Notes: generated by a model from the letters alone, not told the origin. A stretch of DNA of 64,000 bases from Candidatus Thorarchaeota archaeon (GCA_029855935.1 JAGSHN010000005.1:1-64000); one strand, 5' to 3'; positions 31,903-39,631 are shown, numbered from the stretch's first letter. Numbers and translations: made by a program.

Positions 31903-32757
31903 CTACCTCTCACGCATACTGATGCGTTCCTCGGGGTGTTCAATCTGAACACGGAACAGACGTCGGACCCTTGATAGCACCAAGCGCTCACCGTTGACAA
32001 GCACGTCCACGGCTATGTGATCTTTGAGCCCTGTTGTGGAGATCTTCTTCTCAAGCACGGCTTGGACTTGGAACACGCCCGCAGGATTATCCATAGCGAC
32101 TGTGATGAGCAGGGGTCTGTCCTTACCTGGCTCCAGTGTCACATTCTGAATCGCCATTGCGCTGACAGAATGTATGTCAACCTTTCCCTTTTGATACGGG
32201 ATTATGGTGCGCCCCTTGGTCATATCGCATCCGTCGCCAATCTTCGTGACACCGGCCTCAAATGTGAGACATTGAGTGTCATCATCATGTGCGTATATGC
32301 CGTGAAGTGCAAATGAGAGAATGTCCGTGGCCTTACTGGGGTCATCGTATATCTCGTTGAGTTTTGCATCGAGTATGGGAGCCGCGAGATGAACTGCAGC
32401 CTGGGGATGCTCGTTCCGATGAATTACCATCCCGATGTCGTGTAGATACGTCGAGGCCAAGATTACCAACCTAGAGTCATCGATGTCGCCAATTCCCTCG
32501 GCGACAACGTTGGGCCGAAATGTCTGCTCCAAGATCTCGAAGGCACGCAGTGCATTCCACGTTGCAACCTCTGCGTGAATGGGGCCGTGATCCGTATAGC
32601 CCAGACGCGACACAGCCATCCTGTTTGCGGTCCGTAGATACGACTGCACCTTCGGGTGACTGCGGAGATACTCGTACATCTCCATCGCCTTGGAGCCCGG
32701 CTCCAGCAAGTCGCGGACGCTGATTGCCTCTCGATTGAAAACGACTGTGTCATTCAT
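31903..32757 (-). CDS. HD-domain metal-dependent phosphohydrolase
   Basis: YTDHGPIH, YLHDIG, DGCDMTKGR, DIHSVSA. Confidence 0.9.
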   Translation of the reverse strand: MNDTVVFNREAISVRDLLEPGSKAMEMYEYLRSHPKVQSYLRTANRMAVSRLGYTDHGPIHAEVATWNALRAFEILEQTFRPNVVAEGIGDIDDSRLVILASTYLHDIGMVIHRNEHPQAAVHLAAPILDAKLNEIYDDPSKATDILSFALHGIYAHDDDTQCLTFEAGVTKIGDGCDMTKGRTIIPYQKGKVDIHSVSAMAIQNVTLEPGKDRPLLITVAMDNPAGVFQVQAVLEKKISTTGLKDHIAVDVLVNGERLVLSRVRRLFRVQIEHPEERISMRER

Positions 32758-32902
32758 TTACCCCATCACCTGTGGTGATACATAGAGAGAAATGGTCAGG
32801 CACTACGTGAGCTGATAAGCATTACGCAATGGACGAACGAGAGTGCTACGGACTCGACGGTATCCGAGATAGAAAGGTGATGGCGGGACAGCCGATCTAC
32901 GA

Positions 32903-35851
32903 CTATATCTCGCCCGCCTCTTCCTGCATAGAGAGGAGTATTCTGTCGGTGGCGGTCACGGCCTGCTTTATGGTCTTCAGGTATTCCTGGCGAGTCTTCT
33001 CAAAGGCAGCCCGGCTGATGCGCTGCTTCTTCTTCCGCAACAGGAGCTGACGCAGCCCAGCCTTTGCACCCTCCATTCTCTCCTCCTGCAGCTCAAGCTG
33101 GGCAATCATATCGCGATACCGTGAGCCGTATTGCATAAGCTCCTGCTTCAGCGAGGAGAGCTCGGACTCTATCTGCTGCAGCTGGCTCTTGATGTCGCGT
33201 TCGCGAACCATGAATTCGCGTTTGGACACCTTGCCTTTCCTCCGAGCCGACTCCAGCTTCTCCAGGTCAAGATTTAGTGCCGTCTTGCGAGAGTATGTCT
33301 TTGCAAACGAACTCAGGAGCTCGGGTGGTGCGCCCACCTGTGCGGCAACAGGGCCGCCCCTAGCTGCGGCCTCAGTAGTCACTTCAAGACGCGCCTTCCT
33401 TGCCACGACGTAGGCCGCTGCCACAAGTCCCACTATTGCAGAGAATATGAGTGGACGAGCAAAGACGCCAATTGTGACCTGATAGATGAGATAGCTCCGG
33501 GGGGGATTGTGGACAGTGGTGTTGAAGTAGCTATACCGGAAGATTGCATTGAATGGCCCACTGAGCAGTCTGTACTCGCCGGATATGTAGACCACGTTGA
33601 CACTCGTGGGAATGATTATGTCGACAGTGTGACTCCGGACGAGTAGCTCATCGAGAGTGGCCATCGGGAAATCAATCCTAAGGCCCCGGGGGACAACCTC
33701 CTGATACTCGGGCAGATAGATGTCGTATTCCACATTGAAGGTGTACTTGTAGTTCGGCCAGAAGCCCTTCTCACCGAATCGGTCGGCCTTGAGATTAATG
33801 CGCTGGTCGAAGGTGGCATTCCAGTCATAATCGTGAGGCATAGATGCTGCCAAGATTCCCACTTGATCGTAGATTCGGATGTTTGACGCATACGCTGGAA
33901 ACGTGAACGTGAGATCGTTCTCACGCGCGGGACCGATGTTGTCAACGTGTATTGTTTCTTTGTAGTGAAGCCAGCCCCATGGGTCCACAGTTATCTCCGT
34001 TGTCCGCGTGGCGGCAAGAAGTGGTGTGAACGACTTTATGACAATCTCGAAAGACTCTACTGTCATGGGAGCTATGTTCGTGTACACACCCTCTGGATTG
34101 GTACCTGAATGCAGGCTGTCGCCACTCCGAAATCCTATCGTGAATGACAGCCGGGAGATGACATATGGGACCACCGGATACTTCAGAAAGCGCATCTCGT
34201 AGAGGTTGTCATCGGAGTTGATGAGTGTGTGAGTCGAATGGAAGAACATTCGGACCGTGAATTCGTATGTTTCGCCAGGCTCGACTTGATCCAAGAAGTA
34301 GACGCGCCAGCGGTACATTCCGTTGTAGTCACCCACACGGACGACCTGTAGCGCTGCCTCACTCTCACTCTCGGCCTCTATGGACATGAAGTTTGACGTG
34401 TAGGGCTTTGGGAGAAACACGTCGAAAGCGCTGATTGGAACGGCGTCATCGTTTACGATTGTGAAAACGTCTTCAGACTTGACCGAGTGATACAACAGTG
34501 TGCTGACCGTTCGGGCCACCCTAAGAGTGATTCCAAGCAACGGCGTGTAGGGAATCTCGACGGTCACATTGATGAACATCACCGAGGTTGTGTTGGAGGG
34601 GTCTGTTGCATTGAACCAGAGCGTATGGGCCGTGCCCGACTCATAGTCAGACACGTCAAGCACGCCAGTCCACAGATCAGACTTGAAGTCGTACTCAAGC
34701 GGATTCCACGACTCGTTGTCAAATCGGAAAAAGGCCCGTCGCACCCATGAGTTGTCTGTGATGTTGATGCGGAGGTCCATAATCCAGTCAAGTGAGTCGC
34801 CATCCTTGGGACTCACAGGATTAATCCTAGGCGGCGTATTCGGCACGAGCCGAATCATCATCGGGCTCGACCAATCCGTATGACGCACGGGAAAGCCGTC
34901 GATGTCCTCATCAGCACCAATAAGTAAGACAAAGGGATAGTAGATGTTGTTGGCGCTGACAAGAGGAACGTCGTTGGTGTCCGTACTGTTCATCCGAATG
35001 AAGTACTCAATGCTGGTGGTAGCACCGTTGTCGCTAGCGTTTGCTGCCAGTATTCTGGTCGAGTCGTCATCAGGAAGGTGGTTGAACGTGCTGACACCGT
35101 GATCGTCACGATAGACAATTCTGCTGTAGTCAGCCGGGTTCTCCTCGCTGGACCCAATCTTGCGAAGTGTCACCACGTACTCAAGGTCCTTTCCGTAAAG
35201 CTCGTGGCCAGGGGAGTTGTAGGCCTCCTCCGCGGGGATTATGAAGTGTCTGACCTCGCCCACGCGCATGCCAATTATCGCCTCCTTGTAGGCGGTCAGC
35301 AGCTTTTCCTCATTGAGGGGTGTATCCCCGGTTCCGTCCGGGGCCATCCCCTCCTCCAGCAGAGTCCCGTTCCTGTCGTATAGACGATACTCGACCGCCA
35401 CGACCTCATTTCCGGTGACACGTGGAAATGCCTTATGAGGTGTTCCGGGAGCAAAGCCATAGACTAGGTCCGTGTTGTTCAGGCCATCGGTGGTATAGGT
35501 GCCATTGGGAGCCTTCCATCCTATGCCAACCCAACCCGAGGTGGGAGCCTCTAGGCCGACGAATAGAACGGATGAGTTGTGCTCCATATAGACTGTGACT
35601 CCCGTCGCAGGGTCTGTGAAGTTGAGGGCATACTCCTGCGGGTCGATTATCCCATCTGCATAGCCATAGTGCTGGTCGACAAATGGAGCCGAGATGTTGG
35701 GCAAAGAGGATGCCAGCACAGGCTGAGGGCTGTTTGACGACAGAGAAACCGGATGCGTACCGAGTGTACCGTCAGCTGGGAGAGAGCTCAGTCCAACCAA
35801 CAGTGTCAACAATGCCACGACAATGATTTGTCTATGCAGATGGTTCAACAC
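32903..35851 (-). CDS. Type I membrane glycoprotein: signal peptide, DOMON-like domain (FKBP insert), Ig-like domain, ribophorin I-like domain, TM, cytoplasmic coiled coil
   Basis: GWVGIGW..GLNNTDLV (DOMON); VAVEY..EAIIGMRVGE.R.FIIPAEEAY..L.Y.V.L (FKBP); ITVDPWG.L...E.I.V.N.G and FPAYASNIRIYDQVG (RPN1-like); about 15 NxS/T sequons. Confidence 0.8.
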   Translation of the reverse strand: MLNHLHRQIIVVALLTLLVGLSSLPADGTLGTHPVSLSSNSPQPVLASSLPNISAPFVDQHYGYADGIIDPQEYALNFTDPATGVTVYMEHNSSVLFVGLEAPTSGWVGIGWKAPNGTYTTDGLNNTDLVYGFAPGTPHKAFPRVTGNEVVAVEYRLYDRNGTLLEEGMAPDGTGDTPLNEEKLLTAYKEAIIGMRVGEVRHFIIPAEEAYNSPGHELYGKDLEYVVTLRKIGSSEENPADYSRIVYRDDHGVSTFNHLPDDDSTRILAANASDNGATTSIEYFIRMNSTDTNDVPLVSANNIYYPFVLLIGADEDIDGFPVRHTDWSSPMMIRLVPNTPPRINPVSPKDGDSLDWIMDLRINITDNSWVRRAFFRFDNESWNPLEYDFKSDLWTGVLDVSDYESGTAHTLWFNATDPSNTTSVMFINVTVEIPYTPLLGITLRVARTVSTLLYHSVKSEDVFTIVNDDAVPISAFDVFLPKPYTSNFMSIEAESESEAALQVVRVGDYNGMYRWRVYFLDQVEPGETYEFTVRMFFHSTHTLINSDDNLYEMRFLKYPVVPYVISRLSFTIGFRSGDSLHSGTNPEGVYTNIAPMTVESFEIVIKSFTPLLAATRTTEITVDPWGWLHYKETIHVDNIGPARENDLTFTFPAYASNIRIYDQVGILAASMPHDYDWNATFDQRINLKADRFGEKGFWPNYKYTFNVEYDIYLPEYQEVVPRGLRIDFPMATLDELLVRSHTVDIIIPTSVNVVYISGEYRLLSGPFNAIFRYSYFNTTVHNPPRSYLIYQVTIGVFARPLIFSAIVGLVAAAYVVARKARLEVTTEAAARGGPVAAQVGAPPELLSSFAKTYSRKTALNLDLEKLESARRKGKVSKREFMVRERDIKSQLQQIESELSSLKQELMQYGSRYRDMIAQLELQEERMEGAKAGLRQLLLRKKKQRISRAAFEKTRQEYLKTIKQAVTATDRILLSMQEEAGEI

Positions 35852-36046
35852 AGTATCACCCTGCTGATATGGTCTTGGTATCTCGTGCAGAGCCTTTGCT
35901 ACACTGCAAACGCGGCGCCCCAGCAGTCGGGACAGTTAAAACAGTTTCGGACGTCAAAGCAGTGTACGAAGAAGAACAGGAGCGCCTCGCAGAGCCCAAA
36001 GCATAAAATATCGATGTGACAGCCGACTCATCCGGAGTGACGCCAC

Positions 36047-37078
36047 TTGTATCTGCTGCTACTCTCAGTCCTAATCGCCTTCGTGATAGTCATCGTCGTG
36101 ATGCCGAGCACTATCCGGCTTCTACAAGAGAGAGGCCAGATGGGCATTGATGTGCACAAGCCGGATCAACCCGAGGTCCCCAAGGGGGGCGGCTTTGTGG
36201 TGCTGTTCGCCATTGTGACCTCTCTGCTCCTCATCATAGGCGGCACCACATTCACAGATGGAGTTGCCAATCCAGCACTCCTCGCATCACTCGTTTCAAT
36301 TCTGATGGCTGGAATGATTGGTCTACTGGACGACAATCTGGACTTCAGGAATCGGACTAAGATTATCCTCCCCCTATTGGCCTCAATACCATTGGCAGCA
36401 GTACGCGCAGGCACTACAAAGATGGCCATTCCCCTCATAGGCGAGATCAACCTTGGCCTGATGTATCCACTTGTCATCGTGCCACTGATGATGACATTCA
36501 TTGTCGACTCCACGAACATGTACGGCGGCATGAATGGCCTTGAGGCGGGGCTCGCAGCCATCAATTCTTCAGCCATTGTCTTGTATGCGTTCCTGTGGCC
36601 CCTATTTACCGGCTCGACACAACCGCAGTCGACCATTGAGGCAGGCATCGTCGCAGGAGCGCTTATGGGGGCCTCTGTAGCGTTCTGGCTGTTCAACAGG
36701 TACCCGGCCAAGGTTCTGCCCGGCGACGTTGGAAGACTGCCAATGGGTGCGGCGATAGCAGCAGCTCTCATTCTCGGGAATATGGACAGGTTGGCAATAC
36801 TGCTCTACGTTCCCTTCGGCCTCAACTTTCTGTTGTACATAGTGTACCGACTCCATGTGAGGAGGACTGGCATGGAGTATGCGAAGTTTGCATCTCCAAG
36901 GGAGGACGGTACCCTTGAGGTTGTTGGACCATTCACGGTCTACTGGATAGTACCGTATCTGTGGAGAGTCACAGAGAAGAGGAATGTGGAGATTCTTCTG
37001 CTTGTCCAAGCAGTAATAGCGTATGGTACGGTGTTGATGTTGCTGCTGGGGTATCCCTTCGGCGTCGGCTGGATCTAG
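36047..37078 (+). CDS. UDP-GlcNAc:dolichyl-phosphate GlcNAc-1-P transferase (GPT/Alg7/AglH, MraY/WecA family)
   Basis: GIDVHK, GLLDD, NMYGGMNGLEAG, FNRYPAKVLPGD; multi-TM. Confidence 0.9.
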   Translation: MYLLLLSVLIAFVIVIVVMPSTIRLLQERGQMGIDVHKPDQPEVPKGGGFVVLFAIVTSLLLIIGGTTFTDGVANPALLASLVSILMAGMIGLLDDNLDFRNRTKIILPLLASIPLAAVRAGTTKMAIPLIGEINLGLMYPLVIVPLMMTFIVDSTNMYGGMNGLEAGLAAINSSAIVLYAFLWPLFTGSTQPQSTIEAGIVAGALMGASVAFWLFNRYPAKVLPGDVGRLPMGAAIAAALILGNMDRLAILLYVPFGLNFLLYIVYRLHVRRTGMEYAKFASPREDGTLEVVGPFTVYWIVPYLWRVTEKRNVEILLLVQAVIAYGTVLMLLLGYPFGVGWI

Positions 37079-38127
37079 CCCAGCTTGTCAGCCAGATAGT
37101 GCTCCACCACAAAGTCCATGCCATACCTGCTGAAGGCCTGCTGCTCGGCCTTCTTGCGCAGGGACTTGAAGCCAGCAATATGATGCTGACATTCTGGAGA
37201 GCTGTATCGCACATCGTTAGACAGTTCGTCCAGCCGGCGGAGATCTGCATCATTTAGAGGCTCAGTGGGAAGAGTGTAGTCCCGGATATCGTCGGGAGTA
37301 ACACCAATCCAAGCGGCATCAGGTACTACGAGACCAGGGACATGTGCGGCGTTCGCACTACCAGAGATTATGACTCGTGCGATGTGCATCCCCCACGGAT
37401 CACCATCCGTGAAGATGTACACCGGCAGGTCTAGGGCATCATGCAGGAGACGAATCATACGACGGGTTGCACGTGGCGGCTGGCCCCCCAGATGGACGAG
37501 AATTGCTCTGAAACGCTTCCACGCCCCTGTCTCGATGAGGCGGGAGAACATGCCACCAGACTCAACTGCAAGAATGAGTTTCGCATCCGCTGAGATCGGC
37601 TCTGCGGTGACAAGTGCGGGTCCTATTGGGAAACCGTCCGGGCTGAGGGTAAGGTCGATGACCCTGCCCTCATATCCGGGCACTGTATACCTCATCTTGA
37701 CCGCCCCATAGATTGAGGACCTCTCTTCAGGAAATATGCCGAAGTCCTCGCGGGAGAAACCCGTGACACACTCAAGGTCGGCCACTGTACGGTCAGACTC
37801 GGCCTGATCCTTGAACCTTATTCCAAAGGCCTCGGCGGAGTAGTAGAGGTCCCTTAGCGAGCTTGTCCGCCCAGACACAAGAAGACGCTTCGCATACGAT
37901 GCCACCCAGACCAGCTGAGCGAAGCTGCGGATGTGCTTCAGGTTGCTCGAGTCCCTGACCACCTTCTTGGGGCCCATCACAAATTGGTGACGCTGCTCAT
38001 CAAAGACTATGTTTGTAGTTCCCCTGTCGGGAATCTCGAGTACTGGGAACTCGCCAGAGCGAATGCTCTCGACTATGCGATGGCCTATGCCACGAAGCAG
38101 ATGCAGGGGCTGGGCAGGGTCACTCAT
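37075..38127 (-). CDS. top6A: DNA topoisomerase VI subunit A
   Basis: SLRDLYY (catalytic Tyr), VESGGMF, FTDGDPWG, KAEQQA. Confidence 0.93.
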   Translation of the reverse strand: MSDPAQPLHLLRGIGHRIVESIRSGEFPVLEIPDRGTTNIVFDEQRHQFVMGPKKVVRDSSNLKHIRSFAQLVWVASYAKRLLVSGRTSSLRDLYYSAEAFGIRFKDQAESDRTVADLECVTGFSREDFGIFPEERSSIYGAVKMRYTVPGYEGRVIDLTLSPDGFPIGPALVTAEPISADAKLILAVESGGMFSRLIETGAWKRFRAILVHLGGQPPRATRRMIRLLHDALDLPVYIFTDGDPWGMHIARVIISGSANAAHVPGLVVPDAAWIGVTPDDIRDYTLPTEPLNDADLRRLDELSNDVRYSSPECQHHIAGFKSLRKKAEQQAFSRYGMDFVVEHYLADKLG

Positions 38128-39631
38128 CAATATCAACTCCAAACAGTGTCTGGACAAGGTGGCCCGTAGGGGGCACTGGAACATCCGCGAGCTCGGCACC
38201 GTATTTCACAACAAGGGAAAAGAAGCGCTTGAACTCCCTCAATCGCCGCGACTCACGAGCCGCACGTGCTCGAGATCCTGATAGTCTACCTAACTTGCGC
38301 CCCAGGTCCCTGTAGAGATGCTGAACCTCTGTCTCTATCTCAGGAATGGTGTCTATCGACTGTTTTCCTGCTGCCCGGTAGGGAATTCTCGTTGAACATA
38401 CGTGGACGAGGATCACAGGAGTGCCGAGATCCATTATGCCGTATCTTGACCAGTTCGTTTCACGGAGGCCCTTGGTGAGTACACAGCCACTGGCATCATA
38501 GAGCAAAGGTACTCTGTTGGCAAATCTGTAGAGGATTGGGAAACTGCCAGATGTGTTGCGAAACCCCCTCGCGACACAGAGGACCGCCTCGATCAATAGC
38601 GGGTTGCCATTCCACTCTGTGGGGCCCCTCACGGCATATGCGGCAATGTCACACTCAAAGAGAGAACGAACTGCAGTCAGCATCGGTTCCTTTCCTACAG
38701 GGCTGAGGCAGTCTGAGGACGGTTTCTGAATGCCCTGAAAGGAACGCAGCGCGGAGCTCAGGGTAAGAATGTCATCACGGTCCAGTTCCGCTGTCTTCCT
38801 ATTCGGGTCGATGTTTGCAAATCTCAGTAGTCGGCTGGCTGTTCTCGTACCCAGCTGTTGAAACGAACTGACGAGGAACTCCCTGACCCGGATGCCGGGA
38901 CTCGCGGATATCATACGACGCAATAGTTCCACATCAGCAGCTCGAGGGTGCGGCCGACAGACTCGTGACCGTCTTGGGAGTTCGCGCGTGTGTGGACCGA
39001 CACGAATGTGACTATCATCAATTGAGAGGGAGAACAGAACGTGCGGAGATACTATGGTACTCAGGCGCACATAGTCCAGTATACGTTCCTGGGAGCGCGC
39101 GAGATTGCCTCTCAGACGGATTGTCACTGTCGTCCCGGGACCTTCGCGCTCGCCCTCGCTCTCACTGACCACTACGGGCCTGTTCTTCTGTACGTCAATC
39201 AGTATCTCAAATCGCTTGGCCGGCTGTTCGCCACACTTGGTCTCCACCATGACTGGGGAATCTGTCGTAATCTGACCGTACAGAACAGCCATAGTGACAC
39301 CAAGGCCAAAGGTACCTCGTTGCTGACACATAGCGAACTTGCTGCCAAAGAGAACCCGACCGAATGCCTCGGGAACATGCTCATATGAAACCCCTGATCC
39401 ATTGTCTGTCACCGAAACTTCGTAGGTCTTAGGGGCCACTGTGCGGACCCTGATGTCGACTACCGGATTGACACCAGCGAGGTCACATGCATCGAGACTG
39501 TTCTCGACGAGTTCACGAACTGTTGAGAACAGGGCTTGTGCAGGATTGCCAAAGCCCGCCATCTGTCTGTTTCTGTAGAAGAATTCTGCTGGCGAGATAC
39601 TCCCGAATGAGTCATCTGGTAACGAGTCCAT
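38120..39631 (-). CDS. top6B: DNA topoisomerase VI subunit B
   Basis: GHKL motifs ELVENSLDA, DNGSG, RGTFGLG; RFANRVPLLY. Confidence 0.93.
   Translation of the reverse strand: MDSLPDDSFGSISPAEFFYRNRQMAGFGNPAQALFSTVRELVENSLDACDLAGVNPVVDIRVRTVAPKTYEVSVTDNGSGVSYEHVPEAFGRVLFGSKFAMCQQRGTFGLGVTMAVLYGQITTDSPVMVETKCGEQPAKRFEILIDVQKNRPVVVSESEGEREGPGTTVTIRLRGNLARSQERILDYVRLSTIVSPHVLFSLSIDDSHIRVGPHTRELPRRSRVCRPHPRAADVELLRRMISASPGIRVREFLVSSFQQLGTRTASRLLRFANIDPNRKTAELDRDDILTLSSALRSFQGIQKPSSDCLSPVGKEPMLTAVRSLFECDIAAYAVRGPTEWNGNPLLIEAVLCVARGFRNTSGSFPILYRFANRVPLLYDASGCVLTKGLRETNWSRYGIMDLGTPVILVHVCSTRIPYRAAGKQSIDTIPEIETEVQHLYRDLGRKLGRLSGSRARAARESRRLREFKRFFSLVVKYGAELADVPVPPTGHLVQTLFGVDIDE

Follow-up and report, generated by a model that had tools for sequence, protein, structure and literature searches.

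A stretch of 64,000 nucleotides from a Candidatus Thorarchaeota archaeon (GCA_029855935.1 JAGSHN010000005.1:1-64000; hereafter the window) carries a single open reading frame on the minus strand, at positions 32903 to 35851, that encodes a type I membrane protein of 982 amino acids (aa). Structure models and sequence comparisons support the view that this one polypeptide joins an extracellular FKBP domain and a DOMON-superfamily beta-sandwich to the scaffold of OST1, or ribophorin I. OST1 is a eukaryote-signature protein of the Asgard archaea; in eukaryotes it is a non-catalytic subunit that links the oligosaccharyltransferase (OST) to the translating ribosome, and its function is poorly defined even there. 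The reading that we favor, at a probability of roughly 0.6, is that the protein is the OST1 of Thorarchaeota and that its C-terminal half docks at the ribosome-SecY-AglB/STT3 site, holding an FKBP domain and a DOMON sandwich for nascent chains on the outside. While the OST1, FKBP and DOMON families are each known, the fusion of a DOMON(FKBP)-Ig module to OST1 appears to be new. A literature search found no description of ribophorin together with FKBP in Thorarchaeota, nor of DOMON with an Asgard oligosaccharyltransferase, in agreement with an initial annotation of the gene, made from the sequence alone, that knew of no account of this architecture.

The domains follow one another as the initial annotation had proposed, and every element of its order was borne out. 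Hydropathy over the whole protein revealed only two hydrophobic segments, at aa 8-27 and aa ~792-820, as expected from the signal peptide and single transmembrane (TM) helix of that proposal. The protein is accordingly predicted to start with a signal peptide or anchor and to expose ~770 residues to the outside, ahead of one TM helix and ~160 residues in the cytosol; it has no cysteine. More than 190 relatives of 930-1010 aa, mostly labelled Thorarchaeota, have the whole architecture at 46-62% identity; the conservation counts given below were made on 61 relatives with ~47-60% overall identity. The features are as follows.

32903..35851, minus strand: the whole gene, a Thorarchaeal OST1/ribophorin I with an N-terminal DOMON(FKBP)-Ig extension (open reading frame, translation, more than 190 full-length relatives, single copy).
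35771..35851, minus strand: signal peptide or possibly N-terminal anchor, aa 1 to ~27 (hydrophobic aa 8-27 after a basic n-region; cleavage inferred).
35426..35704, minus strand: N-terminal part of the DOMON-superfamily beta-sandwich, aa ~50-142 (AlphaFold2 (AF2) model, structural alignments, Pfam DOMON in relatives).
35156..35425, minus strand: FKBP domain in a DOMON loop, aa 143-232, with a short flap and no insert-in-flap (IF) domain (Pfam FKBP_C, structural matches).
34838..35155, minus strand: C-terminal part of the DOMON-superfamily beta-sandwich, aa 233-338 (structural alignments in common with the N-terminal part).
34550..34837, minus strand: Ig-like (Big_7-type) domain, aa 339-434 (Big_7 in relatives, structural matches).
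33467..34546, minus strand: extracellular region of ribophorin I/OST1 with two beta-sandwich domains, aa ~436-795 (AF2 model, Foldseek, VIA, hhalign).
33392..33466, minus strand: single TM helix, aa ~796-820 (hydropathy peak; long helix in the model at aa 795-828, model residues 360-393).
32912..33334, minus strand: cytosolic four-helix bundle, aa ~840-980, homologue of the OST1 ribosome-binding domain (phmmer, profile, VIA against 8WHN).
36047..37078, plus strand: GT4 polyprenyl-phosphate N-acetylhexosamine-1-phosphate (HexNAc-1-P) transferase of the GPT/AglH/MraY superfamily (Pfam Glycos_transf_4, E 1.5e-27).

Models and sequence profiles confirm that the C-terminal half is a true ribophorin I/OST1 homologue, as had been claimed. 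Every element of the OST1 body plan is present in the C-terminal 550 aa, where two beta-sandwiches outside the cell are followed by one TM helix and a four-helix bundle in the cytosol. When an AF2 model of aa 436-982 (predicted local distance difference test (pLDDT) 88) was searched with Foldseek, the top eight PDB matches all came from OST complexes of human or yeast (E 1.4e-29 to 2.4e-18), and the ninth was an integrin (E 7.6e-8). Structural comparison with VIA gave Z 31.5 to both 8b6l_O (chain residues 28-607) and 6s7o_E (29-594) and Z 29.4 to 6ezn_A (residues ~26-476), as compared to only Z 13.5 for the best unrelated fold. From these residue ranges we take 8b6l_O and 6s7o_E to be RPN1 and 6ezn_A to be Ost1. 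The tail aligned to 8WHN, the ribosome-binding domain of OST1 from Lokiarchaeon MK-D1, over 141/142 residues (Z 17.3, root-mean-square deviation (rmsd) 1.9). What the initial annotation described as a cytoplasmic coiled coil is a four-helix bundle homologous to 8WHN.

Sequence comparisons led to the same family. The tail reached 8WHN with E 1.2e-6 as a single sequence in phmmer and with E 3.4e-9 as the profile of the 61-relative family. PF04597 (Ribophorin_I) was matched by 22/61 relatives (best E 1.3e-10), and the matches are collinear, the first sandwich taking profile positions 12-235 and the second 250-436. With hhalign, the family profile aligned to an Asgard protein of another family, which itself passes PF04597 (E 4.5e-21), over 523 collinear columns that begin in the first sandwich and end in the last helix (99.4%, E 1.3e-21). 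A motif match to RPN1 noted earlier (VDPWGWL..ETI..N.G) falls within this alignment, at the start of the second sandwich. A PF04597 search of the genome returned zero matches and missed even the OST1 gene itself. When the C-half family profile was run against PDB sequences with hmmsearch, it recovered 8WHN and neither RPN1 nor Ost1. A bona fide Asgard OST1 behaved like the Thorarchaeal profile, with phmmer against PDB sequences finding 8WHN only. The link to RPN1 and Ost1 is made by structure and profile-profile comparison. Homologues of Ost1 and Ost3 are established Asgard proteins (PMC10307638), and the cytosolic domains of MK-D1 OST1 and human OST1 pull down ribosomes (PMC11417166).

For the N-terminal module, an AF2 model of aa 40-440 (pLDDT 91, predicted template modeling score (pTM) 0.85) was compared exhaustively with 48,161 PDB representative structures. 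Structures of the DOMON superfamily spanned model residues 10-300 (aa ~49-339) with only 150-177 residues aligned, and they skipped residues 104-196. They included the gamma subunit of ethylbenzene dehydrogenase (2ivf_C, Z 16.1, 168 aa aligned), NxrC (7b04_C, Z 14.8), the DOMON domain of dopamine beta-hydroxylase (4zel_B, Z 13.8), CBM9 (1i82, Z 12.7) and the cytochrome of cellobiose dehydrogenase (1d7c, Z 12.6); an Atlas DOMON cluster aligned with rmsd 1.8 over 163 aa. FKBP structures, on the other hand, aligned to model residues 104-196 only (aa 143-235). The matches were SlyD (3cgm, Z 12.8, rmsd 1.8, 32% identity, 85/157 residues covered), SlpA (Z 12.1), FKBP2 (2pbc, Z 11.8) and FKBP11 (9ygy_A, Z 10.7). 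Because the DOMON structures flank the region that they skip and FKBPs fit only that region, the FKBP domain is an insertion within a loop of the DOMON sandwich. Both the split DOMON/CBM9-like sandwich and an FKBP insert at aa 143-232 (nucleotides 35156-35425) had been read from the sequence in the initial annotation. Pfam FKBP_C was found at aa 146-229 with 31.9 bits against a cut-off of 21.1 (E 1.7e-7). Ig and CBM modules aligned to model residues 299-395 (Z up to 13.5, rmsd 1.7), and the Ig-like unit of that annotation corresponds to aa ~338-434. In the 61 relatives, Pfam recognized FKBP_C in 60, Big_7 in 44 (best E 1e-10) and DOMON in 15 (best E 1.9e-6).

FKBP is the most conserved part of the N-terminal module. 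All 61 relatives have Y155 and Y211, while Y188 is found in 60/61 and Y225 in 59/61; in the active FK1 domain of wheat FKBP73, the counterparts of Y155, Y188 and Y211 are Y, W and Y. In FKBP12 these are pocket positions. A pocket that is invariant or nearly so implies strong purifying selection and favors a binding site in use. The flap has 13 residues, and the alignments jump the IF insert of 1ix5 (~88-131) and of SlyD (~66-108), which is ~45 aa long. As modeled and aligned, the insert is a short-flap FKBP without the IF chaperone domain. Its best matches, by single sequence and by structure, are prokaryotic proteins of the SlyD/MtFKBP17 type and not FKBPs of the endoplasmic reticulum (ER). 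A SlyD-type FKBP chaperone identity was considered and rejected since the IF domain is lacking and the flap has only those 13 residues.

It had also been claimed that the Met that ligates heme in some DOMON domains is replaced here by Leu, which would favor sugar binding. Column 310 does have Leu in this protein and Met in 49/61 relatives. However, no Met of the DOMON sandwich is invariant, and the Met columns (287, 310 and 332) merely alternate between Met and Leu. Judged from the alignment, this is the behavior of hydrophobic core positions, and it says little on heme or sugar.

The protein has 15 NxS/T sequons as compared to 6.6 expected from composition, all of them extracellular and none in the tail; the earlier estimate of about 15 was accurate. 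Nine of the 15 are kept in 51-61 of the 61 relatives, and N92, N125, N161, N363, N678 and N777 are kept in 56-61. The OST1 fusion protein is probably itself heavily N-glycosylated.

The distribution of the module is narrow. The C-half profile found OST1 in 225/301 sampled Asgard genomes. OST1 frames of ~985-1034 aa occurred only in the families f1 (74/76 genomes) and f2 (1/1), which together form one Asgard order, Thorarchaeota by NCBI labels; in other Asgard families the OST1 frames among the matches listed were 560-710 aa. Four short Asgard OST1s that we read had no N-terminal module, and two of them were plain Pfam Ribophorin_I proteins. The f2 protein carries FKBP_C and Big_7. Among 151 genomes, the N-half profile was found whole only in f1 (26/26) and f2 (1/1), and the whole module was absent from the 124 other Asgard genomes, in which only single Ig, FKBP or DOMON pieces were found. 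Among 1.84 billion representative proteins, ~8 had the whole DOMON(FKBP) module in one stretch.

The module also occurs apart from OST1. Three complete stand-alone genes of 567-586 aa encode the module, a linker and a TM anchor of their own with no ribophorin part. Stand-alone paralogues of 567-598 aa lie at G299:C125:6129-7886, G179:C23:20560-22281, L018 2542-4260 and L020 798-2501; their layout is a signal peptide, DOMON with nested FKBP, Ig, a Ser/Thr-rich linker and the TM anchor. The Thorarchaeota genomes with stand-alone copies (G299 and G179) carry the fused gene as well. When the stand-alone module was used as query, it was found in 0/314 genomes outside f1 and f2. A shared-word search for shorter or split forms returned contig-end fragments only; the stand-alone copies came only from the exhaustive search of representative proteins. 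In a tree of the module, rooted at the midpoint and with an unresolved f1 backbone, the four stand-alone copies form one fast-evolving clade (96/95) on the f1 side of the long f2 branch. As far as the sequences go, this fits a fusion that predates the f1/f2 split, with a later partial duplication.

These data bear on the proposal in the initial annotation that the protein is a prokaryotic precursor of co-translocational quality control in the ER. Because the module is confined to one order, a precursor is unsupported, and the fusion is instead a lineage-specific, parallel solution. The FKBP insert is closest to the prokaryotic SlyD/MtFKBP17 type, and nothing shows that ER FKBPs descend from it.

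How might the protein work? According to the reading that we favor, the C-terminal half would dock at the ribosome-SecY-AglB/STT3 site of the cell membrane, and docking would keep FKBP and DOMON outside the cell, at the point where nascent chains would emerge and be glycosylated. The FKBP domain would most likely bind proline-containing unfolded segments, either isomerizing or just holding them. The DOMON sandwich might supply a substrate-binding surface, for polypeptide or glycan, in place of the missing IF domain, with the Ig domain as a spacer. A link to glycosylation is found in the neighboring GT4 (GPT/AglH-type) gene, which is head-to-head with OST1 in 7/7 loci. Human FKBP11 provides a parallel, as it binds ribosome-associated OST-A translocons (PMC12804085). 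A co-fold of the N-half with the extracellular C-terminal half of STT3 scored 0.00 against a mark of 0.32, and it counts neither way. A more ambitious version of the proposal has a working prolyl isomerase or holdase and a lectin-like DOMON sandwich beside AglB/STT3, such that nascent proteins would be isomerized, held or checked during glycosylation, as an independently arisen ER-like device; we regard this version as tentative and on balance doubtful.

Several observations weigh against the reading that we favor. Direct Pfam and NCBIfam scans of the 982-aa protein recovered FKBP_C alone and did not reach Ribophorin_I or DOMON. The stand-alone copies in a few Thorarchaeota indicate that the module can work away from OST1. 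Thorarchaeota are uncultured, and the proposed role is read from sequence and models. In 9YGY, the only eukaryotic case with a structure, CCDC134 buries the ligand pocket of FKBP11, and the authors argue against a prolyl-isomerase role (PMC12804085); a translocon-bound FKBP need not be catalytic.

The main alternative, on the model of FKBP11 and CCDC134 at the human OST-A translocon, is that the Thorarchaeal FKBP would be a non-catalytic adaptor or structural element that recruits or positions another factor and does not act on nascent chains. Besides the buried site in 9YGY, this explanation gains from E167, present in 56/61 relatives where FKBP12-type enzymes have Asp, and from the missing IF chaperone domain, the insert that gives SlyD-type enzymes high activity on protein substrates. 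We consider it rather unlikely, given that the pocket aromatics are invariant or nearly so, as expected if the pocket is used, and that no neighboring partner gene is conserved apart from the glycosyltransferase. Another possibility is that the module mainly binds a glycan or lipid-linked oligosaccharide through a CBM9-like, malectin-like lectin, with FKBP secondary and a function in glycan handling or glycoprotein retention and not in folding. The sandwich does match CBM9 (Z 12.7), W107 and W112 are invariant or nearly so and W327 is invariant, no DOMON Met is invariant, and STT3 of the same genome may carry a DOMON/CBM9-like C-terminal domain, which is a weak lead. Malectin is reported to work through ribophorin I in animals and rice (PMC9144812). 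Yet the heme-binding DOMON relatives outscore CBM9 (Z 16.1 and 14.8), no sugar-binding residues could be mapped, and it is FKBP that is best conserved; a principal role in glycan binding is therefore improbable.

Those same top matches, the heme-b DOMON subunits of ethylbenzene dehydrogenase (gamma) and NxrC, raise the prospect that the sandwich binds heme b and is part of an extracellular redox device fused to OST1 by chance. H61, H91, H258 and H324, conserved in 51-59 of the 61 relatives, would be in keeping with this, whereas the lack of an invariant Met, with three Met-rich columns that alternate with Leu and Leu at 310 in this protein, the lack of Cys and the lack of a redox partner in the conserved neighborhood make it very improbable. 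As to a chimeric assembly, which the initial annotation had named as a way for its proposal to fail, or a mis-called gene joining unrelated FKBP, DOMON and ribophorin genes, we see practically no chance of either. The more than 190 full-length relatives sit on independent contigs of up to 1.5 Mb, and the long frame is present in 74/76 f1 genomes. In the Logan contigs of the source run, a hydrothermal vent metagenome, which come from a separate assembler, positions 32500-36300 of the window lie in one 8.5-kb contig that covers the whole gene with zero differences at a depth of 32. Both halves of the protein also give confident single-chain models. Among sequencing runs, the gene was found in the source hydrothermal-vent sample only and in no RNA run.

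Comparison with known systems shows what is shared and what is peculiar to the Thorarchaeal protein. OST1 of MK-D1 ('Ca. Prometheoarchaeum syntrophicum', 607 aa, 8WHN; PMC11417166) has the same body plan of two sandwiches, TM helix and four-helix bundle, but compared to this and other Asgard OST1s, the Thorarchaeal protein has ~400 extra N-terminal residues. Human RPN1 (6S7O chain E, 8B6L chain O) and yeast Ost1 (6EZN chain A) have the same fold and domain order over the C-half at 13-16% sequence identity, and are without the N-terminal FKBP/DOMON module. Human FKBP11 (9YGY; PMC12804085) is likewise an FKBP on the luminal or outer side of the OST-translocon with a ribosome link through a cytosolic element. 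However, FKBP11 is recruited as a protein of its own, with its own TM helix, whereas the Thorarchaeal FKBP is joined covalently to OST1 and lies within DOMON; there is no evidence for common descent of the two. The malectin-ribophorin I pair of animals and plants similarly puts a carbohydrate-binding beta-sandwich on ribophorin I, in the service of glycoprotein quality control (PMC9144812). Malectin is a protein of its own and belongs to another fold family, and sugar binding by the Thorarchaeal DOMON sandwich is only a candidate role. The best matches of the insert are SlyD of T. thermophilus (3CGM, 32% identity), MtFKBP17 (1IX5) and MjFKBP26 (3PRB), the latter two, both archaeal, at 29%. SlyD and the archaeal short FKBPs have the C-terminal strand motif H-x-L-x-G-K-D-L in common with the insert, but they are cytosolic and carry the IF insert in their flap, while the Thorarchaeal FKBP has a short flap and is itself inserted in another domain. 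Relative to the DOMON superfamily (PF03351; 2IVF_C, 1I82, 1D7C), the Thorarchaeal sandwich has the same fold (Z 12.6-16.1) and differs in being interrupted by a whole FKBP and in having no invariant Met as a candidate ligand.

The genome is 97% complete, and the C-half profile finds one copy of OST1 in it. STT3/AglB (934 aa) and an OST3/6-like gene lie on the same contig, ~110 kb from OST1. The OST3/OST6-like gene (G000:C14:148213-148530) is a 153-aa frame with 32.5 bits, over the cut-off, ~4 kb from STT3. The last ~190-210 aa of STT3 (G000:C14 ~141446-142075; L002 70-699, minus strand) have no Pfam match and are conserved in Thorarchaeal STT3s. Protein-language-model features of this part pointed to EB_dh/DOMON/CBM9 clusters with a score of 0.91, which is below the safe range, and hhalign found no significant similarity between the DOMON-FKBP profile and the last 210 aa of STT3 (6%). 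OST1 and STT3 may both carry DOMON-like sandwiches. The only other FKBP in the genome (G000:C21:8858-9136; L013 1057-1974, minus strand) is a 305-aa cytosolic protein of the long type, in which an IF-like insert is combined with a basic tail at the N-terminus.

At the locus itself, OST1 is head-to-head with the GT4 HexNAc-1-P transferase gene across a 195-bp spacer, and the GT4 protein scores below the MraY equivalog cut-offs. The order Top6B-Top6A-GT4 <> OST1-hyp284-Trm112-GcvP, where hyp284 is a gene for a 284-aa protein, is kept in six other f1 genomes and the single f2 genome, that is, in all seven loci checked. In this block, the topoisomerase VI subunits A and B are an overlapping pair at 37075-39631 on the minus strand, beside GT4. 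The 284-aa gene lies directly downstream of OST1 (31903-32757, minus strand); its product is soluble, belongs to no assigned family and has 72-81% identity in relatives. We considered this gene as a hidden OST subunit and rejected it, since a TM segment is lacking and its HD-domain match is only weak (E 0.09). OST1 is also adjacent to GcvP, the gene for the glycine-cleavage P-protein, in two non-Thorarchaeal Asgard genomes with a short OST1 (L005 2038-5736; L012 4128-7397), and the adjacency seems to be older than the Thorarchaeal fusion. A 311-aa fragment of the Thorarchaeal fusion protein (56% identity) on a 2.6-kb contig carries the NCBI label 'Deltaproteobacteria bacterium' and is probably mis-binned. 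Public annotation describes the relatives as 'FKBP-type peptidyl-prolyl cis-trans isomerase' or 'Ig-like domain-containing protein', names that hide their identity as OST1.

A whole archaeal order has fused a folding-type domain and a ligand-binding-type sandwich onto OST1, 'Rosetta-stone' evidence that the position of OST1 at the translocon suits the handling of nascent chains. If the protein is indeed a device at the exit site, its eukaryotic counterpart uses separate, recruited proteins, FKBP11 and malectin, for what is here a single chain. The coupling of folding to glycosylation would then have arisen more than once, which calls for caution in taking the gene content of Asgard archaea as a direct image of the ancestor of eukaryotes, and the Thorarchaeal OST1 may offer a single-polypeptide system in which to study how folding helpers are coupled with glycosylation.

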